From Sinorhizobium meliloti (GTDB taxonomy: Bacteria; Pseudomonadota; Alphaproteobacteria; Rhizobiales; Rhizobiaceae), in contig NZ_JAGIOS010000001.1 in NCBI RefSeq assembly GCF_017876815.1, positions 2,940,001-2,972,000 of the forward strand: a stretch of 32,000 nucleotides of DNA, written 5' to 3'. The notes below the pieces were generated by a model. That model had not been told where the DNA came from and did no database searches. It was given only the letters and a program-made list of their open reading frames with translations. The stretch's first letter is position 1. Each line of letters opens with the position of its first letter. Below, piece after piece: positions 2,347-22,769 of this stretch. The translations under genes were made by a program, and so were the position numbers.

Positions 2347-3657
2347 CTATTCTTCCCGAAATGCGCGGCTGATCTGGTCCGACAGGGGCTTGATCAGATA
2401 GGAAAGCGCCGTTCTTTGGCCCGTTTGTATGAAGGCTTCAGCCGGCATGCCCGGGAGCGGCTCAAGGGAGCCCAACCGGGCCAATTCCGCTCCGGGTACG
2501 GCAACGCGCACGACGTAATAGGAGAGGCCGCTTCGGGGATCTTCCGTAAGATCGGCGGCGATCCGGGATACGGAGCCGCCGAGCTCGGGCGTGGTTCGCT
2601 GATTGAAAGCCGATAGCCGCAGCACCACGTCCTGGCCGAGCTGGATCTGGTCGATGTCCTGTGGCCGTATGCGGGCTTCGATCGCCAGCCTGTCGCTGTC
2701 GGGGACGATGGACATGACGACGTCGGCCGGCGATATCACGCCTCCAACAGTATGGACGTTGAGCTGATGCACAATGCCGCCCTGCGGGGCGAGCATATCG
2801 ATGCGTCTCAGCTGATCCTCGGCGGCGATCTTGCGTTCGGTGAATTCGCCGAGCTGCGCCTGCACCTCCCGCAGCTCGCGGCCGACCTCTGTCTTGAGAT
2901 CCTCGTCGATCTGAAGGATCTGCAATCTTGTCTCGGCAATCCTGCCAGCCGCCTGGGCCTGTTGAGCGATTTTTTCGCCTCGAAGGCCCTCAAAGGTTGC
3001 CGCCCTCGTTTCCAGTTCGTTCAATCGCTGCACCGACACGATACCTCTCTCATGCAGGCTCCGAAGAGACGCGATTTCGGCATCGAGTATCGAAAGGCCC
3101 CGGTCGTAAGCCTGCTGCTGGGCATCGAGGCCGGCGATTTCATGCTGGAGCTGGACGATACGTTCGAGCAGCTGCGATCTGCGCCCCTCCCGCGACCGTC
3201 TGCGGTATTCGAAGAGCTTGCTCTCACCATTGATGGCGGAGGCGACGGCCCTTTCCTTCGCGCGGACTTTGAGTTCCGTGGGAAATTCCAGCTCGCCGCG
3301 GTCGTCCCTTTCCGCCTCCAGACGCGCGAGGCGTGCCATGAGTTCATCCAGGCGCTTCGTCACGATGCGGAGATTCGCCTTGGTCTGTGTCGGATCGAGA
3401 CGCATCAGCACCTGGCCCGCTTTTACCCAGTCGCCTTCCTCCACCAGGATCTCACCGATGACGCCGCCGGTCGGGTGCTGGACCTTCTTGACATGGGAGT
3501 CGACGACGAAATTTCCCGACGCAACCACGGCCCCGGCCAATTGCGTGGTCGTTGCCCAGGCGCCGGCAGCTCCTATTAGTGCCAGGCCGACGGCCATGCC
3601 GATCGCGAGGTGCCGGCGGATGGACCGGGTAACGGCCTCAGCTTCAGTGCTTGACAT
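2347..3657 (-). CDS. HlyD-family type I secretion membrane-fusion (periplasmic adaptor) protein, HasE/PrtE-like
   Basis: 436 aa. It has an N-terminal TM (LAIGMAVGLALIGAAGAW), a long coiled-coil centre, and the C-terminal GMPAEAFIQTGQRTALSYLIKPL signature of T1SS adaptors. Its ATG at 3657 overlaps the ABC gene stop by 14 nt. Confidence 0.92.
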   Translation of the reverse strand: MSSTEAEAVTRSIRRHLAIGMAVGLALIGAAGAWATTTQLAGAVVASGNFVVDSHVKKVQHPTGGVIGEILVEEGDWVKAGQVLMRLDPTQTKANLRIVTKRLDELMARLARLEAERDDRGELEFPTELKVRAKERAVASAINGESKLFEYRRRSREGRRSQLLERIVQLQHEIAGLDAQQQAYDRGLSILDAEIASLRSLHERGIVSVQRLNELETRAATFEGLRGEKIAQQAQAAGRIAETRLQILQIDEDLKTEVGRELREVQAQLGEFTERKIAAEDQLRRIDMLAPQGGIVHQLNVHTVGGVISPADVVMSIVPDSDRLAIEARIRPQDIDQIQLGQDVVLRLSAFNQRTTPELGGSVSRIAADLTEDPRSGLSYYVVRVAVPGAELARLGSLEPLPGMPAEAFIQTGQRTALSYLIKPLSDQISRAFREE

Positions 3658-5497
3658 CGGCGTTCTCCGTATCGCCCGCTTCGGCTATCGTTGGTTCGGT
3701 GCCGGTGTTCGCAACCACCTTGAGTGGCGCAAGAGTCCGCCCGGAAACGGAAAAGGAACGGGCTGCCGCAGGGGTTGCGTCGCCGTTCTGGCGAGGCGGC
3801 AGCTTCAGAACCTGGGAGAGGACCTCGTCCCTTGGGCCGAATGCCTTGACCTGGCCGCTGTCGACGACAAGGACGAGGTCTGCCGCCCCGATGGCGCTCC
3901 GCCGATGGGCCACCACGACCGCGATGCCTTCCCGGTTCCTCACCGACAGAATTGCGTCGATCACCGCTTTCTCACCGTCCGCATCGAGATTGGCGTTGGG
4001 TTCGTCCAGAACGACGAGGAAGGGATCATTATAGAGCGCCCGGGCAAGACCGATACGCTGGCGCTGTCCGGCGGACAAAGCGGAGCCGGCCTCGCCGATG
4101 CGCGTCTCATACCCCTGTTCGAACCTCACGATGAGATCGTGAACTCCCGCGGCCTGCGCCGCCTTGACGATGGCCGTCGGGTCGGGACTGTTTTCGAAAC
4201 GCGATATGTTCTCGGCGATGGTCCCGTCGAAGAGCTCGACTCCTTGCGGAAGATAGCCGATGTGCCGGCCGAGTTCCTCACGGTCCCATTGCTCGTAGCT
4301 GGCGCCGTCAAGACGCACCTTGCCGCTGGCAGGGGTCCAGGCGCCGACCAGCGCGCGGGTGATCGTCGATTTTCCGGAGCCGCTTGGCCCGATGATCCCG
4401 ATGGCCCCGCCGGCCGGGACGGAAAAGCTTACGCCGGCCACTGTAGGCTTCCCGCCGGAGCCGGGCGGAATGACGGTGAGGCCCTCGACGGCCAGTATCG
4501 ATTTGGGGGCGGGAAGGGGCATTGGCGGATGTGCGGGCGGGATAAGTTGCAACAGGTTCCGGAGCCGGTCCCAGCTCTGCCGTGCCATCAGGAAAGGCTT
4601 CCAGGAGCCGATAGCGAGATCGACGGGAGCAAGGGCTCTTCCCATCATGATCGAGCTTGCCACCATGACGCCTGCGGATACCTGCTGTTCGATGACGAGC
4701 CATGCGCCGACGCCGAGGATTGCCGATTGCAGGATCATCCGCAGCATCCTCGACACCGAACCGAAGGCACCGGCTACGTCGGCCGCACGGCGGTTCGCCT
4801 CGAGGTACAGATGATTTGCGGAGAGCCAGCGTTGCTGCAGGTGCCTCTCAAGGCCAAGCGCCCTCACGGTTTCCGCATTGCGGCGGGCGGCTTCCATCAA
4901 GGCGTTGCGGTCGGTGCCGTATCGCGTCGCGTCTCTGGTCGGCTGCACTGACAAACGATCGGTCAGCAAGGTCATTGCCACGAGAACGAGTGCCCCGACG
5001 AGCGCCGTCATCCCGATCCAGAAATGGAAGAGGAAGCATATTGCAAGGTAAAGCGGCATCCAGGGCAGGTCGAACAGGGCTGTCGGCCCGGCACCGGCGA
5101 GGAAGCCCCTGACATTGTCCAGGTCGCGAAGCGGCTGCAGCCCGTCGCCGGGCATGCGCGTTTCGAGCGGCAGACGGACGATCGCCGCATGCACGCGCCC
5201 CGAAAGCCGATGGTCGAAGCTTTCTCCGATCCGGAGCAGAGCGCGCGAGCGCACGATCTCCAGCATCGCCTGGAAACCGTACATGAGCGTGGCCAGGACG
5301 GCGAGCCCGACAAGGGTCGGAAGGCTGCGGCTTGCCAGGACCCGATCGTAGACCTGCAGCATGAACAAGGGAGACGTCAGCGCCAGCAGATTTACAATGC
5401 CGCTGATGATTGCTAGCCCGGTAAAGGCTGTCCTGGCTGCCGGAATCACCGCCGCAGCCTTAAGCTGCGGCGGCGTCCGTTTGGAGTTTCCAAACAT
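3644..5497 (-). CDS. Type I secretion system permease/ATPase (PrtD/HasD class, no C39 or CLD domain)
   Basis: 617 aa. SPLFMLQVYDRVL N-terminal T1SS motif, Walker A GPSGSGKST, signature LSAGQRQRIGLARAL, Walker B FLVVLDEPNANLD. Confidence 0.92.
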   Translation of the reverse strand: MFGNSKRTPPQLKAAAVIPAARTAFTGLAIISGIVNLLALTSPLFMLQVYDRVLASRSLPTLVGLAVLATLMYGFQAMLEIVRSRALLRIGESFDHRLSGRVHAAIVRLPLETRMPGDGLQPLRDLDNVRGFLAGAGPTALFDLPWMPLYLAICFLFHFWIGMTALVGALVLVAMTLLTDRLSVQPTRDATRYGTDRNALMEAARRNAETVRALGLERHLQQRWLSANHLYLEANRRAADVAGAFGSVSRMLRMILQSAILGVGAWLVIEQQVSAGVMVASSIMMGRALAPVDLAIGSWKPFLMARQSWDRLRNLLQLIPPAHPPMPLPAPKSILAVEGLTVIPPGSGGKPTVAGVSFSVPAGGAIGIIGPSGSGKSTITRALVGAWTPASGKVRLDGASYEQWDREELGRHIGYLPQGVELFDGTIAENISRFENSPDPTAIVKAAQAAGVHDLIVRFEQGYETRIGEAGSALSAGQRQRIGLARALYNDPFLVVLDEPNANLDADGEKAVIDAILSVRNREGIAVVVAHRRSAIGAADLVLVVDSGQVKAFGPRDEVLSQVLKLPPRQNGDATPAAARSFSVSGRTLAPLKVVANTGTEPTIAEAGDTENADVKH

Positions 5498-5518: not shown

Positions 5519-6331
5519 TCAAGCGACGAATTCGAAATTGCCGGCGACCAGGGCAGTCTTGGTCACACCGTTCAAGGTGATGTCGCCGAGCGCGCCGAGG
5601 TTGATGACCGTGTTGGCGCCGGCCTGGGATGAGGCGGCATAGACCTCGGCGAAGCTGTCGAAGGCCGTGCTCTGCAGCGCGAGGCGCACGATGTCGCCCT
5701 TGGCACCGGCGGTAAAGCCGTTGACCGCGTCGTTGCCGATCGTCGACGACAGCGCACCGTCGATGTCCCGGTCGAAGACGAACCGGTCGCGGCCTGCGCC
5801 GCCGTTCAGCGTGTCGTTGCCGTCGAAGCTGTAGAGCCAATCATTGCCGGAGGTACCGTTCTGGACGGTGCCGACCTCTCCCAGATAGTCGAAAAGGCCG
5901 TCCTGTTGCTTTCCGCTTTTCGAGGTAACCCCGGTGAAGTTCGCCAGCGGGTCCGAGTCGACGTTGCTGTTGTGGGTCAGCGAATAGATAGCGCCGGTAA
6001 AGGTTTTGGACGGGCTCACGCCGCCGAGATCGATGCTCAGGTCGGTGTTCGCCAGATCGAAGCCCGATGAGGACGAGCTGGTGAGGCCCCTGCCGAATTC
6101 GAGGCTGTCGACCGTTCCCGTAAAGCCGGCAGGGATGATATAAGAGAAATTGCCTTCGAGAATGACGCCGCGGCTCCCGGCGATATCAACTTGGCCACCC
6201 GCCCATTCATCGTAGGGTGGAAGCGTCGAGTCGAACTGGCCGTTGCCCTCGTAATTCAGATTGGTGGCCCAGCCCTTAAGATAGTTGAGAAGGTTGGCGC
6301 TTGCTGCTGTCAGATTGATGGTTGCAACCAT
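5519..6331 (-). CDS. Secreted T1SS substrate: HasA-hemophore-like N-terminal domain fused to three RTX nonapeptides and a C-terminal secretion signal
   Basis: ATG at 6331 with AAGGAA RBS. There is no Sec signal peptide. Residues 1-130 align by eye with Serratia HasA (YLKGWAT / YLGQWAS; GNFSYII / GNLTYTL; GTVDSLEFGRGL / GQLDSLSFGDGL). RTX repeats GTSGNDWLY-SFDGNDTLN-GGAGRDRFV lie at 5774-5857. The C-terminus ...AGNFEFVA has an acidic-then-hydrophobic tail. The gene ends 21 nt upstream of the ABC gene. Confidence 0.75.
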   Translation of the reverse strand: MVATINLTAASANLLNYLKGWATNLNYEGNGQFDSTLPPYDEWAGGQVDIAGSRGVILEGNFSYIIPAGFTGTVDSLEFGRGLTSSSSSGFDLANTDLSIDLGGVSPSKTFTGAIYSLTHNSNVDSDPLANFTGVTSKSGKQQDGLFDYLGEVGTVQNGTSGNDWLYSFDGNDTLNGGAGRDRFVFDRDIDGALSSTIGNDAVNGFTAGAKGDIVRLALQSTAFDSFAEVYAASSQAGANTVINLGALGDITLNGVTKTALVAGNFEFVA

Positions 6332-6485
6332 GGTGAGTTTTCCTTGGTTCTGAACGATGGCCGCAGGTTGATCCTGCGACAGTGTGCTGTGAGCAATTGT
6401 TCCATGTCTTGTCTCCCGAAGTGGCTTTTCGTTTCGATTGAACGGGAGCGATAGATGCGCCCCACGTTACGCATGTCGAACGGAA

Positions 6486-6655
6486 CTTCGCCCCTCATCC
6501 GCCTGCCGGCACCTTCTCCCCGCGAGCGGGGCGAAGGGGACTCGCGGCGCCGCTCTACCCTCAGCCCCTCAAGAGCGAGCGGTGAGGCCGAGGCTTGTCC
6601 CTTCTCCCCGTCAGAAAAGGGGAGAAGGTCGCGGCAGCGGGATGAGGGGCATCCG
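6486..6655. repeat. Rhizobial palindromic intergenic repeat (RIME / REP-like mosaic element)
   Basis: Outer inverted repeat gcccctcatcc (6490-6500) / ggatgaggggc (6640-6650). Two inner hairpins: ccttctcccc-N6-ggggcgaagg (6512-6537) and ccttctcccc-N9-ggggagaagg (6600-6628). It translates to the spurious PAPSPRERGEG peptide common in Rhizobiaceae intergenic repeats. Confidence 0.7.
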
Positions 6656-6705
6656 CTTCGCTCGAAGAACCGACAATCGGGCGCGGCCGCTTCACTCGAA
6701 CCACT

Positions 6706-9363
6706 CTAGAACTTGAAGTTCAGCGATACCGTCGCGGTCCGCCCCGGAGCGGGATAGTAAAAGGCACCCAATGCCGGCGCATATTGCTCGTCGGTAACGT
6801 TGTTGATGGCGAGCCGCAGCTTGGCGCTGTCCGAGAAGCTGTAGGAGCCGTAGATATCGAATACCTTGTAGCCGGCGGTGTTGAACAGGCCCGCCAGCTG
6901 GCCCACCGTGGGCTTTGAATCGCTGACATAGGTCGCGCGTCCGCCGAGAACCAGCTTCCGCTCGAACAGGCGGATGCCGGCATCGAGCGTGAACTTGTTT
7001 TCCGGCGGGACGAACAGAACCGATGGCACCGGCGTGTTGCCACTTGCTGCAAGCGGGGTCCCGGACGCGGTCGGCCCGGAGTAACTGTAGGTGTCGGCGT
7101 AATCGGTTTTCAGGTAGGTATAGGAGGCGCCGACATAGGCTGATCCCATGTCGTAGCTCGCCTCGATCTCGACCCCGTTCATCGTGGTATCGCCGTCGAG
7201 ATTGACATGCTGGAAGAGGTTTTTGTCGAAGGTGGCGAAGTAACCATTTCCAAGCGTGATATAGTCCTGAATGGTCCTGTCGAAGTAGACCGTCTTGAGG
7301 CGCAGGCTGTCGCCGGCCGTGAACAGCCCGTCCCGTGCGATGTTGATCCCGAGCTCCCATGTCCGGCCCCGTTCCGGCTTGAGGTACGGGTTGGGGATAT
7401 AGGTGGCGATGGCATCACCGGGATGTCCGCCCGACGTCAGCGCTTCCATCACGGATGGCGGCCGGTAGGTATGCGCATAGGTAACGAAGGGTTGAATTCC
7501 TTCGAAGGGCATGACGGCGATCCGCGCCGACGGAAGAAGCGCGCCTCCGGACTTGTCGATATCGACCCGTTCCAAGACCGCCTCACCGCCGCCGTAAACG
7601 GGGTCCTCGTCGTAATAGGCGCACTCGCCGTCGTCATAAAAATAGCCGCACACTCCAGGGACCACGATGTAGCGCGGCTTCCTCCCTCCGACTTCCGTGA
7701 ACCCCTTCAGGCGGTAGCGGTCGTAGCGAAGGCCGGCACCGACCTCCAGCCAATCGTCATGCTCCAGGGTGGCGTTGAGGAACGCGCTCGTCATCGACCG
7801 GCGGCCGACCGGGTTCAATCCCTTGTAGCCGTAGGCCTCGTCGAAGCCTTGGTCGTCGACGAGAGGCGGCGTGGTCGTCTTGCCGTTGTCGGAATAGGCC
7901 TCGCCGCCGTAATTCAGCGAGAGGTCGCCCAGCGCCGTTTCGAAACGGCTCGTATTGTCGAGGCTGCCGCCGAAGCTCGTCATCGCATAGGTGATCGGAA
8001 GCCTCGGGGTATAATCGCGCAGTTCGTCATTGACCACGCGGTTGTACCAGAGGCGCCCCTTGAGATCGATCAGTTCGCTGTCGGGATCCCATTCGAAGGA
8101 TGAGCTGACGGTGTTGTTGAGGTAGTTCTGCGGGTCGTCGCGCAGGTCGCCGAAGACGAGTCCGCCCTGTATCGCCTCCGAGTCGTTGCGAAGCCAGCTG
8201 AGGTCGAAGGTGAAATCGTCCGACGGCGAGCCCTCGACTTTCAGAAGCGTGCCGAAGGTTTCGAGACGCGAGAACAGGAAAGAATCGTCGACTGCGGTCG
8301 TGACCGCAAGATCGAGCAGCGGGGACTTGCCGTTCTGGCCGAAGTCGTAGTCGCCGACCCGCTTGCGGCTGATGCCGCCGAGAACCGAGAAGTCCTCCGA
8401 GAATCTGGCAGCTCCGATCAGCGAGCCGTTGAAGTAGTAGGCATTGGTGCCGGTCTCGGCATTGAGTTCGACGCCCCGATCCCGGTCCGGCTTTATGATG
8501 TCGTCGGCCGTCACCGTGCGGAAATTCACCGCGCCGCCCAGCGAGCCTGCACCGCCGACGCCGGCGACTGCGCCTTTCTCGACCTCCACCGATCGAAGGA
8601 ATGCCGTGTCCACATAAACCCGCTGGCTGGCGCCGTGGCCGGCCCGCTGGAAATCCTGCCGCGCGCCGTCGATCATGGTGGTGACCCGGTTCTGATCCTG
8701 GAGGCCGCGCACATTGATTGCGATGCCGGGGTTCTGCGCTTCCGAGCGGTTACTGGTGACGCCGGCAACCGAGTCGAGCACGTCGTTGGCGTTGCGCGCC
8801 GCCCGGCTCTGCACAGCGTCACGCGAGACGACGCTGACGGAAGCCGGTTCCTCGTAGACCCAGTCGGGTGTCCCCTGAAAGCCGGCGCCCGAATTGGCAT
8901 TTCGCCCGGTTTTGCCGGTCACGACAATCCGCTTCAGAACGGTCGCGCCTTCCTCCGAGCCAGGCGCGCCAGCGTCTCCTGCGGGGCCGATGACCGCAGC
9001 GCGATTGGCCGTGAACTGATAGTGCACACCGGTGCCGTCCAGCAGTTGCGCCAGCGCCTGCTCCGGCGTCATCCTTCCGCGCACCGCACGGGTGGTGACG
9101 TTCGAGGTCCTGCCCGCTGCAGCCTGGCTGATCTGGATGCCTGACTGGCGGTTGAACAGGGCGAGGGCCGAGGCCAGCGGCTGCGACGGGATATCGAAGT
9201 TGCGGACCGCCTGCGACTGCTGCGGTGTGGCCGCGATTTCCTGGGCCGCCAGTTGCGGCGCAGTGCAGACCACGGCGATTGCTGCCGAGGTAGATAGAAG
9301 GAAACCGCGAAGGTACCTTGTGGTGAATTGTGTGTCGCGCTTTGACGCTGCCCCGTATGCCAT
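6706..9363 (-). CDS. TonB-dependent outer-membrane receptor/transducer with N-terminal STN signalling domain (HasR-like; heme-receptor-type FRAP/NPNL-like boxes)
   Basis: Signal peptide ...AVVCTAPQLAAQE. STN domain FDIPSQPLASALALFNRQSGIQIS...ALAQLLDGTGVHYQF (8998-9207). Plug LKRIVVTG. YRPPS...GGH...NPYLKPE lies at 7372-7467. The C-terminus ends in F (SLNFKF). The track ORF starts at GTG 9447; ATG 9363 is more plausible. Confidence 0.9.
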   Translation of the reverse strand: MAYGAASKRDTQFTTRYLRGFLLSTSAAIAVVCTAPQLAAQEIAATPQQSQAVRNFDIPSQPLASALALFNRQSGIQISQAAAGRTSNVTTRAVRGRMTPEQALAQLLDGTGVHYQFTANRAAVIGPAGDAGAPGSEEGATVLKRIVVTGKTGRNANSGAGFQGTPDWVYEEPASVSVVSRDAVQSRAARNANDVLDSVAGVTSNRSEAQNPGIAINVRGLQDQNRVTTMIDGARQDFQRAGHGASQRVYVDTAFLRSVEVEKGAVAGVGGAGSLGGAVNFRTVTADDIIKPDRDRGVELNAETGTNAYYFNGSLIGAARFSEDFSVLGGISRKRVGDYDFGQNGKSPLLDLAVTTAVDDSFLFSRLETFGTLLKVEGSPSDDFTFDLSWLRNDSEAIQGGLVFGDLRDDPQNYLNNTVSSSFEWDPDSELIDLKGRLWYNRVVNDELRDYTPRLPITYAMTSFGGSLDNTSRFETALGDLSLNYGGEAYSDNGKTTTPPLVDDQGFDEAYGYKGLNPVGRRSMTSAFLNATLEHDDWLEVGAGLRYDRYRLKGFTEVGGRKPRYIVVPGVCGYFYDDGECAYYDEDPVYGGGEAVLERVDIDKSGGALLPSARIAVMPFEGIQPFVTYAHTYRPPSVMEALTSGGHPGDAIATYIPNPYLKPERGRTWELGINIARDGLFTAGDSLRLKTVYFDRTIQDYITLGNGYFATFDKNLFQHVNLDGDTTMNGVEIEASYDMGSAYVGASYTYLKTDYADTYSYSGPTASGTPLAASGNTPVPSVLFVPPENKFTLDAGIRLFERKLVLGGRATYVSDSKPTVGQLAGLFNTAGYKVFDIYGSYSFSDSAKLRLAINNVTDEQYAPALGAFYYPAPGRTATVSLNFKF

Positions 9364-9484
9364 GAAATGCCCACTCTTCTGCTTGTCACAGGCACCGCCC
9401 CCGGTGCCGTCGACCAAATAGACAAAGCGGCAGATCGGTTTTTTCACGGGGTCATGGAAAAAACTTGAAAACGGATGTCATATT

Positions 9485-10549
9485 TTAGAAGCGAGAGATG
9501 ACGCGGGCGAAGCTCGAGATTCTCCTCACCTTGCCTCCATAAGGGTCGACCAGAGCGCCGAGCGCTTCGTCCGGCGCCGTGAGGTCGTAGATGCCCGTTA
9601 CCCGCTGGCTGCCGAGCACGGGATCCGGCAGGGATATCCAGGCTGGATGGTAACGTTGAATCCGTTCCACGACGGAGGAGATGGTGGCATTAACGACGTG
9701 AAGGCGTCCCTGTCGCCAGGCGCCGATAGACGCCGCGTCGATGTCGGAGGTCGTCATATCCTGCGCATCGCGGTCGAAGACGAGCGCTTTCCCGGGCGTG
9801 AGACGCCGCTCAGCAGATGCCTCCTTCCCGGACGGAGAGGCCGTGACCAGTCCCCGTTCAAGACTTACCCGGGTGCTTTCACTATCGACCATGACGTCGA
9901 ATGCCGTGCCGAGAACTTCGATTTCGAGACCGCCGGCATCGACGACGAATGGGCGCGCGGGATCGTGCGCCACATCGAAGTACGCTTCGCCCTGGAGCAG
10001 CCTGAGGCTGCGTCGGCTCTGACCGAAGTCCATGGCGATCGCGCTCCCGGGCGCCAAAGTCACGGTGCTGCCGTCCTCGAGCTCGAGGGAGCGGGTCTCC
10101 GCGGTCCCAGTGTGGTAATCCGATTGCAGGACGATCAGCAAGCCGGGAACCCACGCTACGAGAAGACAGATGGCCATCGCACAAGCTGCGATCGCCAAGG
10201 AAGCTCGGCCGCCGCGCCGGCCGGGCTTGAAGTTGTGCGCCGAGGGCTTGTCCCGAGCGGCTGGCAACGCTCCGACGGACAACCAGAGCCGACAGGTCTT
10301 CTCCCATTCCCGCCTGTGGTCTCGGGAAGTGGTGACCCATCGTTCGAAGTGCAAACGCATTTCGGGATCATCGGGCGCTTCGCGAATGCGAATGAGCCAG
10401 TCCGTCGCCTCTTTCGAGAGTTCCGCTGCATTATCGTCAGGCGTCATGGTTCCATCATCCAGCTGCGCGTAGTCCGCGTCTCGCTCACTTTGAAGATAGA
10501 CAGGCGAGAGATCGGCTTTTTTCAGATGTACCGAACGTTCATTCGTCAT
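9485..10549 (-). CDS. FecR-family anti-sigma factor / transmembrane sensor (HasS-like)
   Basis: N-terminal anti-sigma helix region (ATDWLIRIREAPDDPEMRLHFERWV), a single TM (LAIAACAMAICLLVAWVPGLLIV), and a periplasmic FecR domain (GEAYFDVAHDPARPFVV). Its ATG at 10549 overlaps the sigma gene stop by 11 nt. Confidence 0.9.
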   Translation of the reverse strand: MTNERSVHLKKADLSPVYLQSERDADYAQLDDGTMTPDDNAAELSKEATDWLIRIREAPDDPEMRLHFERWVTTSRDHRREWEKTCRLWLSVGALPAARDKPSAHNFKPGRRGGRASLAIAACAMAICLLVAWVPGLLIVLQSDYHTGTAETRSLELEDGSTVTLAPGSAIAMDFGQSRRSLRLLQGEAYFDVAHDPARPFVVDAGGLEIEVLGTAFDVMVDSESTRVSLERGLVTASPSGKEASAERRLTPGKALVFDRDAQDMTTSDIDAASIGAWRQGRLHVVNATISSVVERIQRYHPAWISLPDPVLGSQRVTGIYDLTAPDEALGALVDPYGGKVRRISSFARVISRF

Positions 10550-11096
10550 GGTCGAGGCCTGCCTTCAAGTGCTCCATGGCGTCCCTGACGAGGCGATGGG
10601 CCGTCGGTATCGAGATACTCAGTTCTTCGGCGATGTCCTTCAAAGTCGACCCCTCGAAGCGGTACAGTTCGAATGCCCGTCTCATGCGATCCGGAAGAGC
10701 TCCGAGCGCCTGGGCGACCCGGTCTGCGGCCTCGGACATCAGGAATTGGGCTTCCGGCGTCTCGACGGCCTGTGGCAGCGCCCACCACGGTATATCCGCG
10801 GACTCGACGACGTTGTTCTCAAGCTTTCGCCGCGACCGCTTGTTGAACGAAAGGTTGCGCACGATGCGAAACAGGTAGGTCTTCGGCGGCATGTGCTCGT
10901 CTGCCGTTTCCCGCACGAAGCGAAGATAGGCATCCTGCACGATATCCTCGGCATCGTCCTTCGATCCCAGCAGCGGCGCGGCATAGTCGATCAGGGACCT
11001 GCGGTGCCGCAGGTACATGTGAAAGCGGTCGCCCTTTTTTTCGATAGTCATTGTCCAGCCAGATATTCCGAGATCGCCGCGCTGGCCGTCGGCCAT
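10539..11096 (-). CDS. ECF (FecI-type) RNA polymerase sigma-70 factor (HasI-like)
   Basis: Region 2 DAEDIVQDAYLRFV and region 4 HTH LKDIAEELSISIPTAHRLVRDAM. The track ORF begins at TTG 11252. ATG 11096 (MADGQ...) or ATG 11051 (MTIEKK...) gives a normal ECF length of 170-185 aa. Confidence 0.88.
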   Translation of the reverse strand: MADGQRGDLGISGWTMTIEKKGDRFHMYLRHRRSLIDYAAPLLGSKDDAEDIVQDAYLRFVRETADEHMPPKTYLFRIVRNLSFNKRSRRKLENNVVESADIPWWALPQAVETPEAQFLMSEAADRVAQALGALPDRMRRAFELYRFEGSTLKDIAEELSISIPTAHRLVRDAMEHLKAGLDHDE

Positions 11097-11172
11097 TCTG
11101 GAAAGGACACCGGACGAACGCGCTAAACGAGCGGCTATGCTTATTCTGTCGCCCAGAATGCCGCAACAAAGT

Positions 11173-11187
11173 TGATTGAGATAATCA
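11173..11187. promoter_or_regulatory. TGA-N9-TCA palindrome (RirA iron-responsive-operator-like; also Fur-box-like GATAATCAT) upstream of the ECF sigma gene
   Basis: Read directly: tgattgagataatca in an AT-rich patch, about 80-120 nt upstream of the candidate sigma starts. The motif has low information content, so this is tentative. Confidence 0.3.
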
Positions 11188-11356
11188 TGTTTAAAGGCTG
11201 TTTTTCGTGGAAACGCCCCTCCAAAGCGAACTTTAAAAGCGAGGATCCTCAAACTGCTCCGAATTCTGCGAAAGACGCAGCGGCAGACTTAAATTCCGGC
11301 ACTTCCGGCTCTATATGGCGTTCTATGACCTCTTTGCGGTCACGAAATAGGGAAGG

Positions 11357-12376
11357 ATGGAAATGCAGCGTTTCGGACGAGTTATGGCCATTGCGGCGAT
11401 TGGTTTGGCATCTGTACTGACACTAGCCGATGTCGCCGATGCAAGGCGGGCGGGGGGTGGCTTCGGCTCACGCGGCAGCCGGACCTTTTCCACCCCGCCT
11501 GTAACCCGGACGGCGCCCGCGCCGGCCGCGCCGATCGACCGGACGATGACGCCGCGTCAGAACGCGCAGCCTTCGACCTCCACCAACCCCGCTGCGCAGA
11601 ATCGCACGACCAATGCGCGCCCGGGCTTCTTCAGTGGTTTCGGCGGATCGATGATCGGCGGTCTGATGATGGGCGGCTTGATCGGCATGCTGCTCGGCCA
11701 CGGTATCGGCGGCGGCATCGGCTTCCTCGGACTGCTGCTGCAGGTCGGCCTCGGCGTTCTGCTGATCTCCCTTGCGATGCGTTTCTTCGGCCGCAATCAG
11801 CGTCCTGCCTATTCGGCGCCCTCGGCATCCGGCCGCTCTTCGGCGGCGACTGCGGGCTCGCCATCCTTCCGCATTCCTCGAATCGGTGAAGGTACGGGCG
11901 GTGCCGGCGCGGCGTCGCTCGCGACGCGATCGTCCGCTGCCGCACCGGCTTCCGGAAATGGCGATGAAATCACAGTCGGCCAGGAGGATCTCGATCGCTT
12001 CGAGGCGATGCTCAGAGATGTGCAGGCTGCCTACGGAGCGGAAGATTATGCGGCATTGCGCCGGCTGACGACGCCGGAAGCCATGTCCTACCTCGCGGAA
12101 GAGCTCAGCGACAACGCAACGAAGGGCCTGAAGAACGAGGTCCGTGACGTCCACCTCGTCCAGGGCGACCTCGCCGAGGCATGGAAGGAAAACGGTAGCG
12201 ATTACGCGACCGTTGCCATGCGCTACGAGAGCGTCGACGTGGTGCGCGACCGAGCCACCGGCCGCGTCGTCAGCGGCGATGCGGGTCGGCCGACCGAAGC
12301 GGTCGAAATATGGACGTTTCAGCGCAAGCCCGGCGCCGACTGGCAGGTATCCGCCATCCAGGGCGTCGAGGCTTGA
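11357..12376 (+). CDS. Tim44-like domain membrane protein
   Basis: Signal/TM N-terminus, Gly-rich TM block (GGSMIGGLMMGGLIGMLLGHGIGGGIGFLGLLL), and a C-terminal Tim44-like domain (EDLDRFEAMLRDVQAAY...EIWTFQRKPGADWQVSAIQ). The start may be the second ATG at 11363, which has better spacing to GGAAGGA. Confidence 0.85.
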   Translation: MEMQRFGRVMAIAAIGLASVLTLADVADARRAGGGFGSRGSRTFSTPPVTRTAPAPAAPIDRTMTPRQNAQPSTSTNPAAQNRTTNARPGFFSGFGGSMIGGLMMGGLIGMLLGHGIGGGIGFLGLLLQVGLGVLLISLAMRFFGRNQRPAYSAPSASGRSSAATAGSPSFRIPRIGEGTGGAGAASLATRSSAAAPASGNGDEITVGQEDLDRFEAMLRDVQAAYGAEDYAALRRLTTPEAMSYLAEELSDNATKGLKNEVRDVHLVQGDLAEAWKENGSDYATVAMRYESVDVVRDRATGRVVSGDAGRPTEAVEIWTFQRKPGADWQVSAIQGVEA

Positions 12377-12600
12377 CCTCGAGGCCATGGCGGCCCGGTT
12401 CCGTCGGGGGGAGGCTCTTGGTCATACAGGCGTTGCGACCCTCGACGGGGAAGGGCGAAGATCGGCTATTGACGGCGCCGCTCTTTGCCGCTCTTTTCTG
12501 ACATGCGAGCTCGCCGTAACCTATTGATTCCAGGGCTTCGTTGCGGCGGTTCGGTGCAGTGGCTGTTTTTTTGACTGCAGCCCGGTCCAGGAGCAGCGAT

Positions 12601-13326
12601 ATGAAGAAGCTTGGCATGACAACGAACAGCTCGGGCGGGGCAGCGTTCTTCGCCGTGGCAATCACGGTGTCGGCTTTGGCCTCCAGCGCTGCCGTGGCGG
12701 CGGATTGCAAGAGCTCAGCCAGAGCCGGGATCGACTGGCAAGACTGCAACAAAAAGCAGATCATGCTTGGCGGCAGCGACCTTCCGGGGAGCAATCTGTT
12801 CAACACCGACTTCACGATGACCGACTTGCGCGGGGCCAATCTCACTTCCGCAAATCTCGAAAAGGCGACGCTCGTTCGCGCTTCGCTTGCCGGGGCGAGG
12901 GCGGACAAGGCGAATTTCAGCAGGGTCGAGGCCTATCGGGGCAATTTTTCAGCGATTTCTGCGGAAAACGCCTCCTTTGCGAGTGCGGAACTGCAGCGCA
13001 CCGATTTTACCGGAGCGCGTCTAACAGGCGCCGACTTCGAGAAGGCGGAACTCGGGCGCGCCAATTTCGACAAGGCTGTGCTGACCGGCACGCGTTTTTC
13101 CATGGCCAATCTTTCGCGCGCCAAGCTGAGCGGTGCGGTGCTCGAAGGGCCGATCGATCTGGATCGGGCCTTTCTCTTTCTGACCAGGATAGAGGGCGTC
13201 GACCTTTCCAGCGCGTCCGGGCTCACACAGGAGCAGGTCGATCTCACCTGCGGTGACGGCGCGACCAAACTGCCATCGGGTCTGGCCGCGCCCGGCAAAT
13301 GGCCGTGCCCTCCCGACGACGATTGA
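12601..13326 (+). CDS. Secreted pentapeptide-repeat protein
   Basis: ATG 12601 after AGGAG (the track ORF starts at TTG 12541). Signal peptide ...ALASSAAVAADC, followed by a long run of A(D/N)LxX pentapeptides (NLTSANLEKATLVRASLAGARADKANFSRV...). Confidence 0.85.
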   Translation: MKKLGMTTNSSGGAAFFAVAITVSALASSAAVAADCKSSARAGIDWQDCNKKQIMLGGSDLPGSNLFNTDFTMTDLRGANLTSANLEKATLVRASLAGARADKANFSRVEAYRGNFSAISAENASFASAELQRTDFTGARLTGADFEKAELGRANFDKAVLTGTRFSMANLSRAKLSGAVLEGPIDLDRAFLFLTRIEGVDLSSASGLTQEQVDLTCGDGATKLPSGLAAPGKWPCPPDDD

Positions 13327-14140: not shown

Positions 14141-14830
14141 TCAGGCGTTGCCGGCGAGCGCGATATAATGGACCGAGTGAACGGTATTGGCTTCGAAGCG
14201 CAGCTCCTTGTGAGGGTTGAACTGCTCGAGAACCAGTTCGGAGCTGTTGTGGCGCACGAATTTCTTGACATAGGCCAGCAGGGCGCCGCCTTCCTCCAGC
14301 CGAATCTGGGCGATCACATAGTCTCCCTTCCGGACGCGCCGGCTCGGATCGACGAAGCAGACCTCGCCGTCTTCGTAGCGCGGATACATCGAATCGCCTG
14401 AGACCGAGACCGCATAGGCGCCCGAGATATCCGAGAGTATCGGCGGCGCCATGACTTCGTACAACACATTGCCGTTCATTATGAATTCACCATCAACCCC
14501 GCCGACTGCCTGACCGAAGACCGGGATCTTTTCCCCCTGGCCGATGACCTTGGCGCCGATCCGGGCGTTCGGTACGTCGATTTCGGTCATTGTCGAGCCA
14601 AGCGCCGAGCCTGTAGGGATTCGGCGGTCGGTGCCGGTCAGCAGCCAAAGCGGGTCGACGTTGAACTTGCGTCCGTAAACTTCGGCTTCGCTGAGTTCGA
14701 ACTCATTCTGCCCATTCTCGTGGGCGCGATAGGTCGAGGCGACGATGCCCAAGGCATTCGCCGCGTCGGAGGCGAACCGATAGCCCGCTTTGACGCGCGC
14801 CTCGCGCAATCTTTCAGCTCTTTCGCTCAT
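14141..14830 (-). CDS. Phage CI/LexA-like repressor (XRE HTH plus S24 peptidase domain)
   Basis: ATG 14830 (MSERAERLREARVKAGY...). HTH SDAANALGIVASTYRAHENGQ, and an S24 catalytic region YAVSVSGDSMYPRYEDGEVCFVD...KGDYVIAQI.. (Ser/Lys dyad context). Confidence 0.9.
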   Translation of the reverse strand: MSERAERLREARVKAGYRFASDAANALGIVASTYRAHENGQNEFELSEAEVYGRKFNVDPLWLLTGTDRRIPTGSALGSTMTEIDVPNARIGAKVIGQGEKIPVFGQAVGGVDGEFIMNGNVLYEVMAPPILSDISGAYAVSVSGDSMYPRYEDGEVCFVDPSRRVRKGDYVIAQIRLEEGGALLAYVKKFVRHNSSELVLEQFNPHKELRFEANTVHSVHYIALAGNA

Positions 14831-14845
14831 GACACGGACATAGCA

Positions 14846-14876
14846 ATGTTGAGAACACAAATCATGTTGACAACAC
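14846..14876. promoter_or_regulatory. Two direct operator-like repeats ATGTTGA(G/C)AACAC in the divergent promoter region
   Basis: atgttgagaacac (14846-58) and atgttgacaacac (14864-76), spaced 18 bp apart, between the repressor start (14830) and the divergent gene start (14965). Confidence 0.4.
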
Positions 14877-14964
14877 GACATTATAGATGTCATGGATAAA
14901 GTCAAGTCGCGGCTGCGCTTGCTCCGTGACTGCTGGGAGCGCCGGAAAGGGAGTAGGAGAAGCG

Positions 14965-15483
14965 ATGGTGGAGAATTCTGAACTGGCAAGGCAGACGCGG
15001 CACTATCTGGCCGTGCGGGAGCGGTTGGCCCGCCCGGGCGACGCGGCGGGCCGATCTGCTCGCATCAAAGAACTCGAAGGGCAGTTGGCCGACCTTGCTT
15101 CTGACAATGAAGCGAAAGGGCGGCGGATCGCGAGACTGGAAGCCGATCTTGCCGATGCGGGAGCCCGGCTGCTCGCGCAGGCCCGAATCCTGCTTGGCGG
15201 CCGCGATACCGGTGCGTCGAACGAGGACGGCGGCGACAGAGCGCCGATCGAGGAGATCGTTGCCGCCGTGCTCGAGGATTTTCCCGGTGTGAGCTGGGAC
15301 GACATCATCAGCGTGCGCCGGGAGCGCCGGCTGGTGAAGCCGAGGCATGCCTGCATGCGCGCGGTCTATGAGCGCCGCCGGGATCTCTCGCTGGCGGGGA
15401 TCGGCCGCATCTTCCATCGAGACCACACGACCGTGCTTGCGGTCGTGAACGATGGCGGTGCCGGAAGCGGAACAGCTTCCTGA
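14965..15483 (+). CDS. DnaA-domain-IV-like (Bac_DnaA_C) helix-turn-helix protein with N-terminal coiled coil, phage-associated
   Basis: ATG 14965 after GGAGTAGGAG. The C-terminus ISVRRERRLVKPRHACMRAVYERRRDLSLAGIGRIFHRDHTTVLAVV parallels the DnaA C-terminal DNA-binding domain (..R....PRQ.AMYL......S...IG..FG.RDHTTV). Confidence 0.75.
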   Translation: MVENSELARQTRHYLAVRERLARPGDAAGRSARIKELEGQLADLASDNEAKGRRIARLEADLADAGARLLAQARILLGGRDTGASNEDGGDRAPIEEIVAAVLEDFPGVSWDDIISVRRERRLVKPRHACMRAVYERRRDLSLAGIGRIFHRDHTTVLAVVNDGGAGSGTAS

Positions 15484-21335: not shown

Positions 21336-22769
21336 ATGAGCGTATCCAACCCATCCGAGGGGACCATTGCGTCCGGCCTTTCCGCGATGCTCAGGGAACA
21401 GATGCTGCTGATGGCGGAGCTCCACAGGCGGCAACGAACGAATATCCTCGCCGGTTACCGGCCCTATGCCAAGCAGCGGGAGTTCCATGCGGCGGGCGCG
21501 GCCTTTCGCGAGAGGCTGTTCATGGCCGGCAACCAGCTCGGCAAGACGCTGGCCGGCGCAGCGGAGGCGGCGATGCATCTGACCGGGCGCTATCCCGACT
21601 GGTGGCAGGGCCGGCGGTTCGACCGGCCGATCGTCATGCTGGCGGGCTCGGAATCCTATGAATTGACCCGCGACGGCGTGCAACGGCTGCTGATCGGTCC
21701 GCCGCTGAATGAGGAGGAGTGGGGCACCGGATTTCTCCCGAAGGCGGCGATCAAGGCGACGACACGCCGCGCCGGTGCTTCCGGTGCTCTCGACAGCGTG
21801 ACGGTGCGGCATGTTTCCGGCAGAGCCTCGACCCTTCTCTTCAAGGCCTACGAACAGGGGCGCGCCAAATGGCAGGCCAATACGGTGGATTATGTCTGGT
21901 TCGACGAGGAGCCGCCCGAAGACGTCTATTTCGAGGGGATCACCCGCACCAATGCGACGCGCGGCGCGATCGCGGTCACCTTTACGCCGCTCAGGGGCCT
22001 GAGCGCGGTCGTGGCCAGGTACCTCATGGAAAAATCGCCGGACCGCGCGGTCATCACCATGACGATCGAGGATGCGGAGCACTACACGCCGCAGGAGCGA
22101 CAAAGGGTGATCGACAGCTATCCCGCCCATGAGCGGGAGGCGCGCACCAGGGGCGTGCCGGCGCTCGGATCCGGCAGGATCTTTCCTGTGACGGAGGAGA
22201 GCATTCGTATCGATCCCTTCGAAATCCCGAAGCATTGGGTGCAGATCGGCGGGCTCGACTTCGGCTGGGATCATCCTTTCGCGGCGGTCGGCTGCGCCTG
22301 GGACCGGGACGCGGACGTTTTCCACGTGACGAAGATCTATCGCGAGCGGGAGGCGACGCCGATCATCCATGCGGCGGCACTGAAACCCTGGGGAGCGGCG
22401 ATGCCCTGGGCTTGGCCGCATGACGGATTGCAGCACGACAAGGGCAGCGGCGAGCAACTGGCGGCGCAATACCGCGCACAGGGGCTGGCCCTTCTACCGG
22501 AGCGCGCGACCTTCGACGACGGCACCAACGGCGTGGAAGCGGGGCTCTCCGACATGCTGCAGCGGATGCAGAGCGGGCGCTGGAAGGTGTTTTCCACCTG
22601 CACGGAATGGTTCGAGGAGTTCCGCCTCTATCACCGCAAGGACGGCAGGATCGTCAAGGAACGCGACGATCTGATCTCCGCCTCACGCTACGCCTTGATG
22701 ATGAAGCGCCACGCACGGGCGAACAACGGCTACGCAAACTGGAACTTCACCGCCAGAAAGGTTCTCTGA
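21336..22769 (+). CDS. Phage terminase large subunit
   Basis: 477 aa. Walker A-like FMAGNQLGKT, Walker B VDYVWFDEEP, and a C-terminal RNase-H-like nuclease region (GGLDFGWDHPFA ... DDLISASRYALM). Confidence 0.9.
   Translation: MSVSNPSEGTIASGLSAMLREQMLLMAELHRRQRTNILAGYRPYAKQREFHAAGAAFRERLFMAGNQLGKTLAGAAEAAMHLTGRYPDWWQGRRFDRPIVMLAGSESYELTRDGVQRLLIGPPLNEEEWGTGFLPKAAIKATTRRAGASGALDSVTVRHVSGRASTLLFKAYEQGRAKWQANTVDYVWFDEEPPEDVYFEGITRTNATRGAIAVTFTPLRGLSAVVARYLMEKSPDRAVITMTIEDAEHYTPQERQRVIDSYPAHEREARTRGVPALGSGRIFPVTEESIRIDPFEIPKHWVQIGGLDFGWDHPFAAVGCAWDRDADVFHVTKIYREREATPIIHAAALKPWGAAMPWAWPHDGLQHDKGSGEQLAAQYRAQGLALLPERATFDDGTNGVEAGLSDMLQRMQSGRWKVFSTCTEWFEEFRLYHRKDGRIVKERDDLISASRYALMMKRHARANNGYANWNFTARKVL

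Follow-up and report, generated by a model that had tools for sequence, protein, structure and literature searches.

A stretch of 32,000 nucleotides from Sinorhizobium meliloti (RefSeq assembly GCF_017876815.1, contig NZ_JAGIOS010000001.1, positions 2,940,001 to 2,972,000), hereafter the window, in whose numbering all coordinates are given, carries on its minus strand a gene of 270 codons (5519–6331) that databases call a hemolysin. The analysis presented here indicates that its product is probably a secreted, heme-binding hemophore of the HasA fold, which would act within a six-gene Has-type heme acquisition and signalling system. The protein consists of a HasA-fold N-terminal domain followed by RTX repeats and a C-terminal domain for the type I secretion system (T1SS). 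A preliminary description, made from the sequence alone, had proposed such an organization, with altered axial-ligand positions in the HasA-like domain and a protease-type C-terminus; profile searches, fold comparison, and genomic context bear the proposal out, and published expression under iron limitation and FecI control agrees with it. We further hold it to be an even call whether the gene, which we infer to be SMc04206 of strain 1021, stands for a large and so far unrecognized clade of Ca2+-folded, RTX-fused hemophores that take up heme through a lone tyrosine, without His83 or the distal histidine of canonical HasA.

Fold of the N-terminal domain and identity of the gene

Residues 1 to about 150 are predicted to take the HasA hemophore fold, an assignment on which independent lines from profile searches, AlphaFold2 modelling, and Foldseek converge. 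The domain (amino acids 1–152; 5876–6331, minus strand) is supported by profile comparison with the HasA of Yersinia pestis (HasAyp) in the PDB, by Foldseek, and by hhalign. Direct scans of the protein against Pfam and NCBIfam returned RTX repeats, weak C-terminal similarity to serralysin, EglC, and PueAB, and no HasA, so that profile and fold searches were needed. Within the PDB sequence set, a profile of 24 family members matched Y. pestis HasA (4jer) at E = 3.1e-11 (residues 1–101 onto 1–117), and the same profile matched HasAp and the HasA of Serratia marcescens at E-values of 1e-4 to 1e-6. AlphaFold2, supplied with the family alignment, modelled the full-length protein with a predicted local distance difference test (pLDDT) score of 94.7 and a predicted template modelling (pTM) score of 0.91, and residues 1–152 alone with a pLDDT of 92.2. 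When the model of the N-terminal domain was compared with the PDB in Foldseek, all 44 matches with E < 1e-3 were HasA, the next match standing at E = 0.35, and the best match was holo-HasAyp (4jet_H), with a template modelling (TM) score of 0.62 when normalized to the query and 0.54 when normalized to the target. The window protein's class was also aligned by hhalign with a sister class of HasA/RTX proteins that itself reaches Pfam HasA (see the family survey below), giving a probability of 99.3% and E = 7e-21. The collinear blocks shared with HasA, from which the domain had originally been recognized, thus lie far beyond chance, and the comparisons of profile and structure, either of which could have led to a different fold, both placed the domain in the HasA fold. 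The HasAs of Y. pestis and Yersinia pseudotuberculosis (4jer, 4jet, 4xzd) gave the best profile and fold match, and they share with the window protein the N-terminal start and the equivalent of the ligand Tyr75.

The reading frame opens with an ATG codon, has an AAGGAA ribosome-binding site 8 nt upstream, and continues for 270 codons. Its translation matches NCBI WP_164833511.1 (‘hemolysin [Sinorhizobium meliloti]’) at 100% identity and is the same, from Met5 on, as the 266-residue protein of strain 1021 (P0121); the match to strain 1021, together with the published gene order fecI-fecR-SMc04205-SMc04206-07-08, underlies the assignment of the window gene to SMc04206. The start MVATINLT is conserved in all orthologues and matches the N-termini of canonical HasAs. 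The annotation of strain 1021 begins four codons late (MNLT...), a difference that touches positions 6320–6331 of the window. An accessory status of the gene in S. meliloti was considered when a scan of one genome per species gave no locus from this species, and was rejected on the evidence of the 90%-identity cluster of the window protein, whose members come from strains 1021, SM11, GR4, and BL225C and lie on hundreds of contigs. From these matches the window is taken to be part of the S. meliloti chromosome.

Family survey

An exhaustive HMMER search with a profile of the N-terminal domain recovered 75 cluster representatives (50%-identity level) at E ≤ 1e-3, 61 of which were aligned together with the window protein and two relatives (n = 64). 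The aligned sequences fell into three classes, whose counts are biased toward the query class: canonical HasAs of 187–205 amino acids (n = 4), with a long distal loop bearing His32, with His83, and with no RTX; a sister class (n = 24) with a short distal loop, in which His83 is present, the Tyr-His dyad is kept, and usually 2–11 RTX repeats follow; and the class of the window protein (n = 36), with a short distal loop, no His83, and RTX. Pfam RTX was reached by 42/64 of the sequences. Two members of the sister class, from Pseudovibrio sp. JE062 (P0078) and Shinella sp. H4-D48 (P0138), resemble the window protein in their short distal loop, their joining of HasA and RTX, their hydrophobic C-terminus, and the sigma factor, FecR, and TonB-dependent receptor genes that adjoin them; they differ from it in keeping the Tyr-x4-His dyad, as do all 24 members of their class, and in reaching Pfam HasA. 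The HasA/RTX gene of Pseudovibrio JE062 (L024) has no adjoining genes for an ATP-binding cassette (ABC) exporter or a membrane fusion protein and is followed by a nos (N2O reductase) cluster.

The preliminary description had called the architecture undescribed. Our literature search found no paper describing a HasA-RTX fusion of either class or a rhizobial hemophore, and to that extent the claim stands; members of the sister class, however, among them the Pseudovibrio and Shinella proteins with their Pfam HasA and RTX matches, already bear the automatic NCBI name ‘heme acquisition protein HasA’, so the fusion as such is visible in databases. The class of the window protein carries Gly or Ala in place of His83 and escapes Pfam, and its members are therefore annotated ‘hemolysin’. 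What has gone unrecognized so far is this His83-less class and, with it, the probable Has-type system of S. meliloti.

Heme-ligand positions and pocket

Tyr64 (codon 6140–6142, minus strand) occupies the position of the HasA axial ligand Tyr75 in the alignment to HasAyp, a pairing returned alike by HMMER, MAFFT, and hhalign, and it is invariant in 24/24 family members and in 64/64 aligned sequences, canonical HasAs included. Both the codon and the alignment position that had been given for this residue in the preliminary description hold. At the position of His83, the hydrogen-bond partner of Tyr75, the counts for alignment column 68 and hhalign, which pairs the residue with His84 of the sister class, place Ala68 (codon 6128–6130, minus strand), in agreement with the earlier remark that His83 has no counterpart here. 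Column 68 is Gly in 34/36 members of the window protein's class, His in 24/24 of the sister class, and His in 4/4 canonical HasAs, and in this alignment it separates the classes cleanly.

On the distal side, the MAFFT multiple alignment sets Asn30 (codon 6242–6244, minus strand) at His32 of canonical HasA and shows the loop after position 30 to be about 13–16 residues shorter than in canonical HasA; HMMER sets the gap earlier, with Asn30 opposite Arg40 of HasAyp. Within the window protein's class (n = 36), position 30 holds Asn in 14 members, His in 9, and Tyr in 6; a histidine stands there in 4/4 canonical HasAs and also in two close relatives of the window protein (81% and about 60% identity). 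The residue first proposed as the equivalent of His32 was Tyr27, whose codon was correctly located at 6251–6253. This assignment has to be given up, since His32 falls on Asn30 in MAFFT and Tyr27 lies at His32 in neither MAFFT nor HMMER; in the ungapped block of the earlier alignment itself, Y17 pairs with Y19, an offset of 2 that puts His32 at Asn30 there too. Conservation likewise upholds only one of the two tyrosines that had been singled out, Tyr27 being present in 20/36 members of the class.

The pocket aromatics Phe33 (34/36), Trp43 (32/36), and Tyr116 (32/36) are kept in the window protein's class and correspond by alignment to Phe45, Tyr55, and Tyr137 of HasAsm, which belong to the list of heme-contact residues of that protein (PMC9627568); conservation specific to this class is seen at Trp43, Phe111, and Tyr149. 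The HasA of Y. pestis is functional with heme ligated by Tyr only (PMC9627568), and like the window protein it has no distal His (Gln32 there, Asn30 here), for which reason heme is expected to be bound via Tyr alone. The pocket thus looks, from the alignments, like a stripped-down Yersinia-type site with a Tyr only, lacking the distal His and lacking His83 as well. HasAyp differs from the window protein in having a full-length distal loop, a His81/83 partner of the Tyr, no RTX, and a short HasA-type signal, whereas in the window protein the distal loop is about 13 amino acids shorter, Ala stands at the position of His83, an insertion of 28 amino acids is present (aa 120–147), and an additional 115 amino acids make up the RTX and serralysin-type C-terminal domain.

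RTX repeats and secretion domain

Canonical HasA is a single domain of about 190–205 amino acids, in contrast to the 270 amino acids of the window protein with its three Ca-binding nonapeptides (GTSGNDWLY, SFDGNDTLN, and GGAGRDRFV; aa 159–185; 5777–5857, minus strand). The nonapeptides had been noticed behind the HasA-like domain from the outset, at 5774–5857, and their presence was confirmed by a match to Pfam PF00353 of 27.2 bits (cut-off 23) over residues 158–183; short beta-strands appear in the AlphaFold2 model at 155–158, 165–168, 173–176, and 183–187. The remainder of the protein is a serralysin/lipase-type C-terminal T1SS domain (5519–5776, minus strand, including the stop codon) that ends in NFEFVA and was recognized by Foldseek, hidden Markov model (HMM) comparison, and NCBIfam. 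Its last ~85 residues match the C-terminal domains of serralysins and lipases. Foldseek superposed the C-terminal half of the protein on the RTX domain of the Pseudomonas MIS38 lipase (2z8z) with a root-mean-square deviation of 2.1 Å over 118 columns, the HMM match to serralysin (1srp) ran from residues 142–259 onto 341–456, the RTX half of the family profile also matched a Pseudomonas lipase, and the NCBIfam models matched were the C-termini of EglC, serralysin, and PueAB, all of which accords with the protease-type T1SS terminus that had been proposed.

The protein has what marks an RTX/PrtD-type T1SS substrate, namely nonapeptides, a hydrophobic C-terminal end, and adjoining genes for an ABC exporter and a membrane fusion protein. 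With serralysin, the family I.3 lipases (1srp, 2z8z), and EglC it shares the beta-roll and C-terminal sandwich of its last 115 amino acids, the hydrophobic C-terminal end, and PrtD-type ABC export; it differs from serralysin and the lipases in that its passenger is a ligand-binding HasA fold and not an enzyme, and in having only three repeats. Canonical HasA has no RTX domain and is SecB-dependent, and HasD has no N-terminal domain (PMC8277102). Most orthologues end in NFEFVA or NFVF, and some, such as those of Agrobacterium larrymoorei, Endobacterium cereale, and others (P0010, P0019–P0022), end in ...ALAEAA, like the ...LLAA of canonical HasA, so that two kinds of T1SS end motif occur in one family.

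The has-like locus and its conservation

Six genes follow one another on the minus strand in the order extracytoplasmic function (ECF) sigma factor, FecR, HasR orthologue, hemophore, PrtD/HasD-type ABC exporter, and HlyD/HasE-type membrane fusion protein. The FecI/HasI-type sigma factor gene (SMc04203; 10539–11252, minus strand; Pfam Sigma70_r2 and r4) has its probable true start at 11051 (MTIEKK..., 170 amino acids), the annotated orthologue of strain Ak57 being 170 amino acids long as well. It is followed by the FecR/HasS-type anti-sigma factor gene (SMc04204; 9485–10549, minus strand; Pfam FecR and DUF4880) and by the gene for a TonB-dependent heme/hemophore receptor of the HasR type with an N-terminal STN domain (SMc04205; 6706–9447, minus strand; Pfam STN, plug, and barrel). 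The receptor scored 502.6 bits with TIGR01785 (TonB-hemin), and its best PDB match was S. marcescens HasR (317 bits), with ShuA at about 85 bits. It keeps His189 in a GHG motif and a His between the FRAP-like and NPNL-like boxes, with Leu at the position of Ile671; by these sequence features it is a HasR orthologue in which the heme-ligating His residues are retained. Downstream of the hemophore gene lie the genes for the PrtD/HasD-type T1SS ABC exporter (SMc04207; 3644–5497, minus strand; TIGR01842, 735 bits), which has no N-terminal C39/CLD domain and whose ABC_membrane domain starts at residue 34, and for the HlyD/HasE-type membrane fusion protein (SMc04208; 2347–3657, minus strand; Pfam HlyD_3, HlyD_D23, and Biotin_lipoyl_2).

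This arrangement resembles the Has systems of S. marcescens and Pseudomonas aeruginosa (hasI-hasS-hasR-hasA-hasD-hasE-hasB) in the gene order from the sigma factor to the membrane fusion protein, in a HasR with an STN domain, in a HasD-type ABC exporter without an N-terminal domain, and in an expression of the hemophore gene that depends on an ECF sigma factor and on iron. Unlike those systems, the S. meliloti locus has no hasB/TonB paralogue and no hasF (a TonB gene is found in Aureimonas), its hemophore carries RTX, and in strain 1021 only the hemophore operon responds to FecI and the receptor gene does not. No match to TonB, such as a HasB-like paralogue would give, was found within the window.

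A search for homologues with the same fusion in other Rhizobiales, suggested in the preliminary description, was successful: the six-gene order is kept in 13 Rhizobiaceae and Aureimonas genomes, from Rhizobium, Neorhizobium, Agrobacterium, Ensifer adhaerens, and Aureimonas. The Aureimonas locus has a heme oxygenase gene and a TonB gene downstream, the Endobacterium locus has a heme oxygenase gene, and a metagenomic locus (L023) adds genes for heme oxygenase, ExbB, and an importer of the FecCD/periplasmic-binding-protein (heme-type ABC) kind. The gene of a more remote relative, P0036, which has 29% identity and scores 25.2 bits with Pfam HasA, is flanked by genes for a TonB receptor and for heme oxygenase. 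A Shinella metagenome-assembled genome (L021, 9001–9495) keeps the frame of sigma factor, FecR, HasR, ABC exporter, and membrane fusion protein, but the place of the hemophore is taken by a protein that has diverged much further (32% identity over aa 72–254).

Expression

Published data bear on the regulation of the locus. In the work of Lang et al. (2018), overexpression of FecI raised only two genes, SMc04206 among them; this gene was also induced by iron limitation and was listed with ‘no predicted function’ (PMC6180224). SMc04206-08 are handled as one operon in a study of 2024, with an ECF-type transcription start site ahead of SMc04206 (PMC10880074). Rodionov et al. (2006) predicted that S. 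meliloti fecIR is preceded by a RirA box (PMC1698941), and in a comparison with S. medicae, fecI, fecR, and SMc04205 are listed as specific to S. meliloti (PMC4053727).

Proposed mechanism and alternative explanations

Combining these observations, we propose that SMc04206-08 are turned on by the ECF sigma factor FecI/HasI when iron is limiting, as the iron and FecI regulation known from the literature would have it. The unfolded protein would leave the cell through the PrtD/HasD ABC exporter, the HlyD/HasE membrane fusion protein, and a TolC encoded elsewhere, guided by its serralysin-type C-terminal signal. Once exported, the protein would be driven to fold by the binding of Ca2+ to its beta-roll of three repeats, and this would replace the SecB-dependent anti-folding of HasAs that have no RTX. 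The N-terminal domain may then capture heme on Tyr64, with Phe33, Trp43, and Tyr116 contributing to the pocket; as Asn30 on a truncated loop takes the place of the distal His32, the heme would probably be five-coordinate like that of Y. pestis HasA, and since Tyr64 lacks activation by His83 (Ala68), affinity would probably be lower and hand-off easier. By homology with known Has systems, the holo-hemophore could dock on the HasR orthologue, where heme would pass to the two conserved His residues, and the receptor could use its STN domain to pass a signal on to FecR and FecI.

Several findings weigh against this assignment. Pfam HasA (PF06438) gave no match to the window protein even at E ≤ 1, and its scores for relatives, 18–25 bits, lie below the cut-off of 26.3. 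Two of the three canonical pocket residues are missing, His32 and above all His83, and no residue that might replace His83 is consistently conserved among the relatives; at the domain's only histidine, His120, relatives have either His or Asn. A loss of about two orders of magnitude in affinity has been reported for the HasAsm mutant H83A. The S. meliloti locus is without the heme oxygenase and TonB genes present in Aureimonas, and in strain Ak57 (L001, CP090106.1, labelled pSymB, 3.7 Mb) the locus is disrupted by ISRm16 (IS4-like) at 8000–12800, so that the system is dispensable or decaying in some strains. The Ak57 remnant lacks the ABC exporter and membrane fusion protein genes and comprises ~130 hemophore codons (78% identity) and the first 431 receptor codons. 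Amarelle and colleagues reportedly found in 2008 that S. meliloti needs ShmR to use heme in laboratory assays, from which it follows that the Has-like route may be silent or conditional there. Finally, in strain 1021 neither a limited supply of iron nor overexpression of FecI induced the receptor gene SMc04205 (PMC6180224).

These points could be accommodated by a degenerate or repurposed hemophore, which would have kept the HasA fold, lost high-affinity binding of heme, and now serve as a signalling ligand for HasR-FecR-FecI or persist as a relic. The loss of His83 and His32 together with the truncation of the distal loop speaks for such a protein, as do the failure of SMc04205 to respond to low iron or FecI, the insertion-disrupted Ak57 locus, the repeat element that lies between the receptor and hemophore genes (see below), the want of a heme oxygenase or TonB gene in the S. 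meliloti locus, and the reported need for ShmR. We nevertheless regard this explanation as unlikely. Ratios of nonsynonymous to synonymous divergence (dN/dS) against orthologues were 0.15–0.35 for the N-terminal domain and 0.08–0.25 for the C-terminal part, values that are rough because dS is near saturation but that place the N-terminal domain under purifying selection. Tyr64 and the pocket aromatics are conserved over 36 clusters at the 50%-identity level, the six-gene synteny extends over 13 species with heme oxygenase linked in several of them, the gene is regulated by iron, and ligation by Tyr only works in Y. pestis HasA (PMC9627568).

Less likely again is that the HasA fold has been recruited for another ligand, such as a different tetrapyrrole, a metallophore, or a plant compound, that would be delivered to a TonB-dependent receptor, an option already raised in the preliminary description. 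The altered set of axial ligands and the shortened distal loop would fit such a change, and the titles of PDB entries indicate that HasA pockets accept many non-heme macrocycles. The option is disfavoured by the receptor, a HasR orthologue within the TonB-hemin family that keeps the two heme-ligating His residues, by the heme oxygenase and heme-type ABC importer genes linked in orthologous loci, and by the invariance of the ligand Tyr. The reading implied by the database name, an RTX hemolysin or cytolysin, can draw on that name, the RTX repeats, and the adjoining T1SS genes, and was rejected as effectively refuted, given that the protein has only three repeats in 270 amino acids, scores 14.9 bits with NF033943 (RTX_toxin) against a cut-off of 1000, has no hydrophobic pore-forming domain, is encoded in a locus with no acyltransferase gene, and takes the HasA fold in its N-terminal half.

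Implications

Should SMc04206 indeed be a hemophore of the kind proposed, the genes fecI-fecR-SMc04205-08 would be reread as a Has-type acquisition and signalling system in a nitrogen-fixing symbiont surrounded by leghemoglobin, and SMc04203-08 would be re-annotated as a has locus. Among rhizobia it would be the first hemophore system of the Has type, its target possibly heme from leghemoglobin or from the soil, with an affinity and a release chemistry that differ from those of the textbook Tyr-His dyad and with a secretion route independent of SecB. The class would comprise 36 clusters (50%-identity level) in our survey as compared with 4 clusters of canonical HasA, both counted with the same biased profile, and it is missed by current Pfam and NCBIfam models. 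It would offer a natural HasA scaffold without both His residues, in which one can test how far a lone Tyr carries heme capture and hand-off, and it would present one passenger fold in two export forms, with an RTX/Ca2+ module here and SecB-dependent without RTX in canonical HasA.

Intergenic elements and further features of the window

Between the receptor and hemophore genes lies a multi-copy rhizobial intergenic repeat (RIME-like; 6490–6650) with inverted arms of 32 nt each (6490–6521 and 6619–6650) that are 88% complementary; it has matches at 1979 places in plasmid records (n = 266) of Rhizobium, Sinorhizobium, and Shinella. The gap between the two genes, in which the region 6420–6705 was noted, measures 374 nt in the window, compared with about 95–170 nt in orthologous loci, and the element could insulate the hemophore gene from, or attenuate, read-through from the receptor gene. 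Eight TGA-N9-TCA motifs occur in the 32 kb window, two of them in promoter regions of the has-like locus: a palindromic RirA/IRO-like box, TGATTGAGATAATCA, upstream of the sigma factor gene (11173–11187), and a second box (9466–9480) within the 35 nt that separate fecR from the receptor gene, each being a consensus match only from the motif scan.

Scans of the locus gave no promoter-like site for sigma-70 and fewer terminator-like sites than in shuffles, and an Rfam scan of the whole window found nothing. When an ECF-type promoter was sought in the 130 nt upstream of the hemophore gene in 12 loci, the only common elements were the ribosome-binding site and a short hairpin-like element, AGGTTCGCC...GGCGAAC, from which S. 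meliloti diverges. Just upstream of the ribosome-binding site of the S. meliloti hemophore gene stands a hairpin, CGCAGG-ATCAA-CCTGCG (6362–6378, minus strand), and most orthologues (L008–L019) have AGGTTCGCC...GGCGAAC there. The structure of this hairpin seems to be conserved despite the change of sequence, and it may be an element of mRNA processing or stability.

About 3–10 kb beyond the locus, the window contains a gene for an S24 LexA-like peptidase/repressor (14141–14989, minus strand) and a lone gene for a T4-type terminase large subunit (21336–22769, plus strand; Terminase_6N/6C, E = 1e-46), which together suggest that the remnant of a prophage lies beside the has-like cluster.

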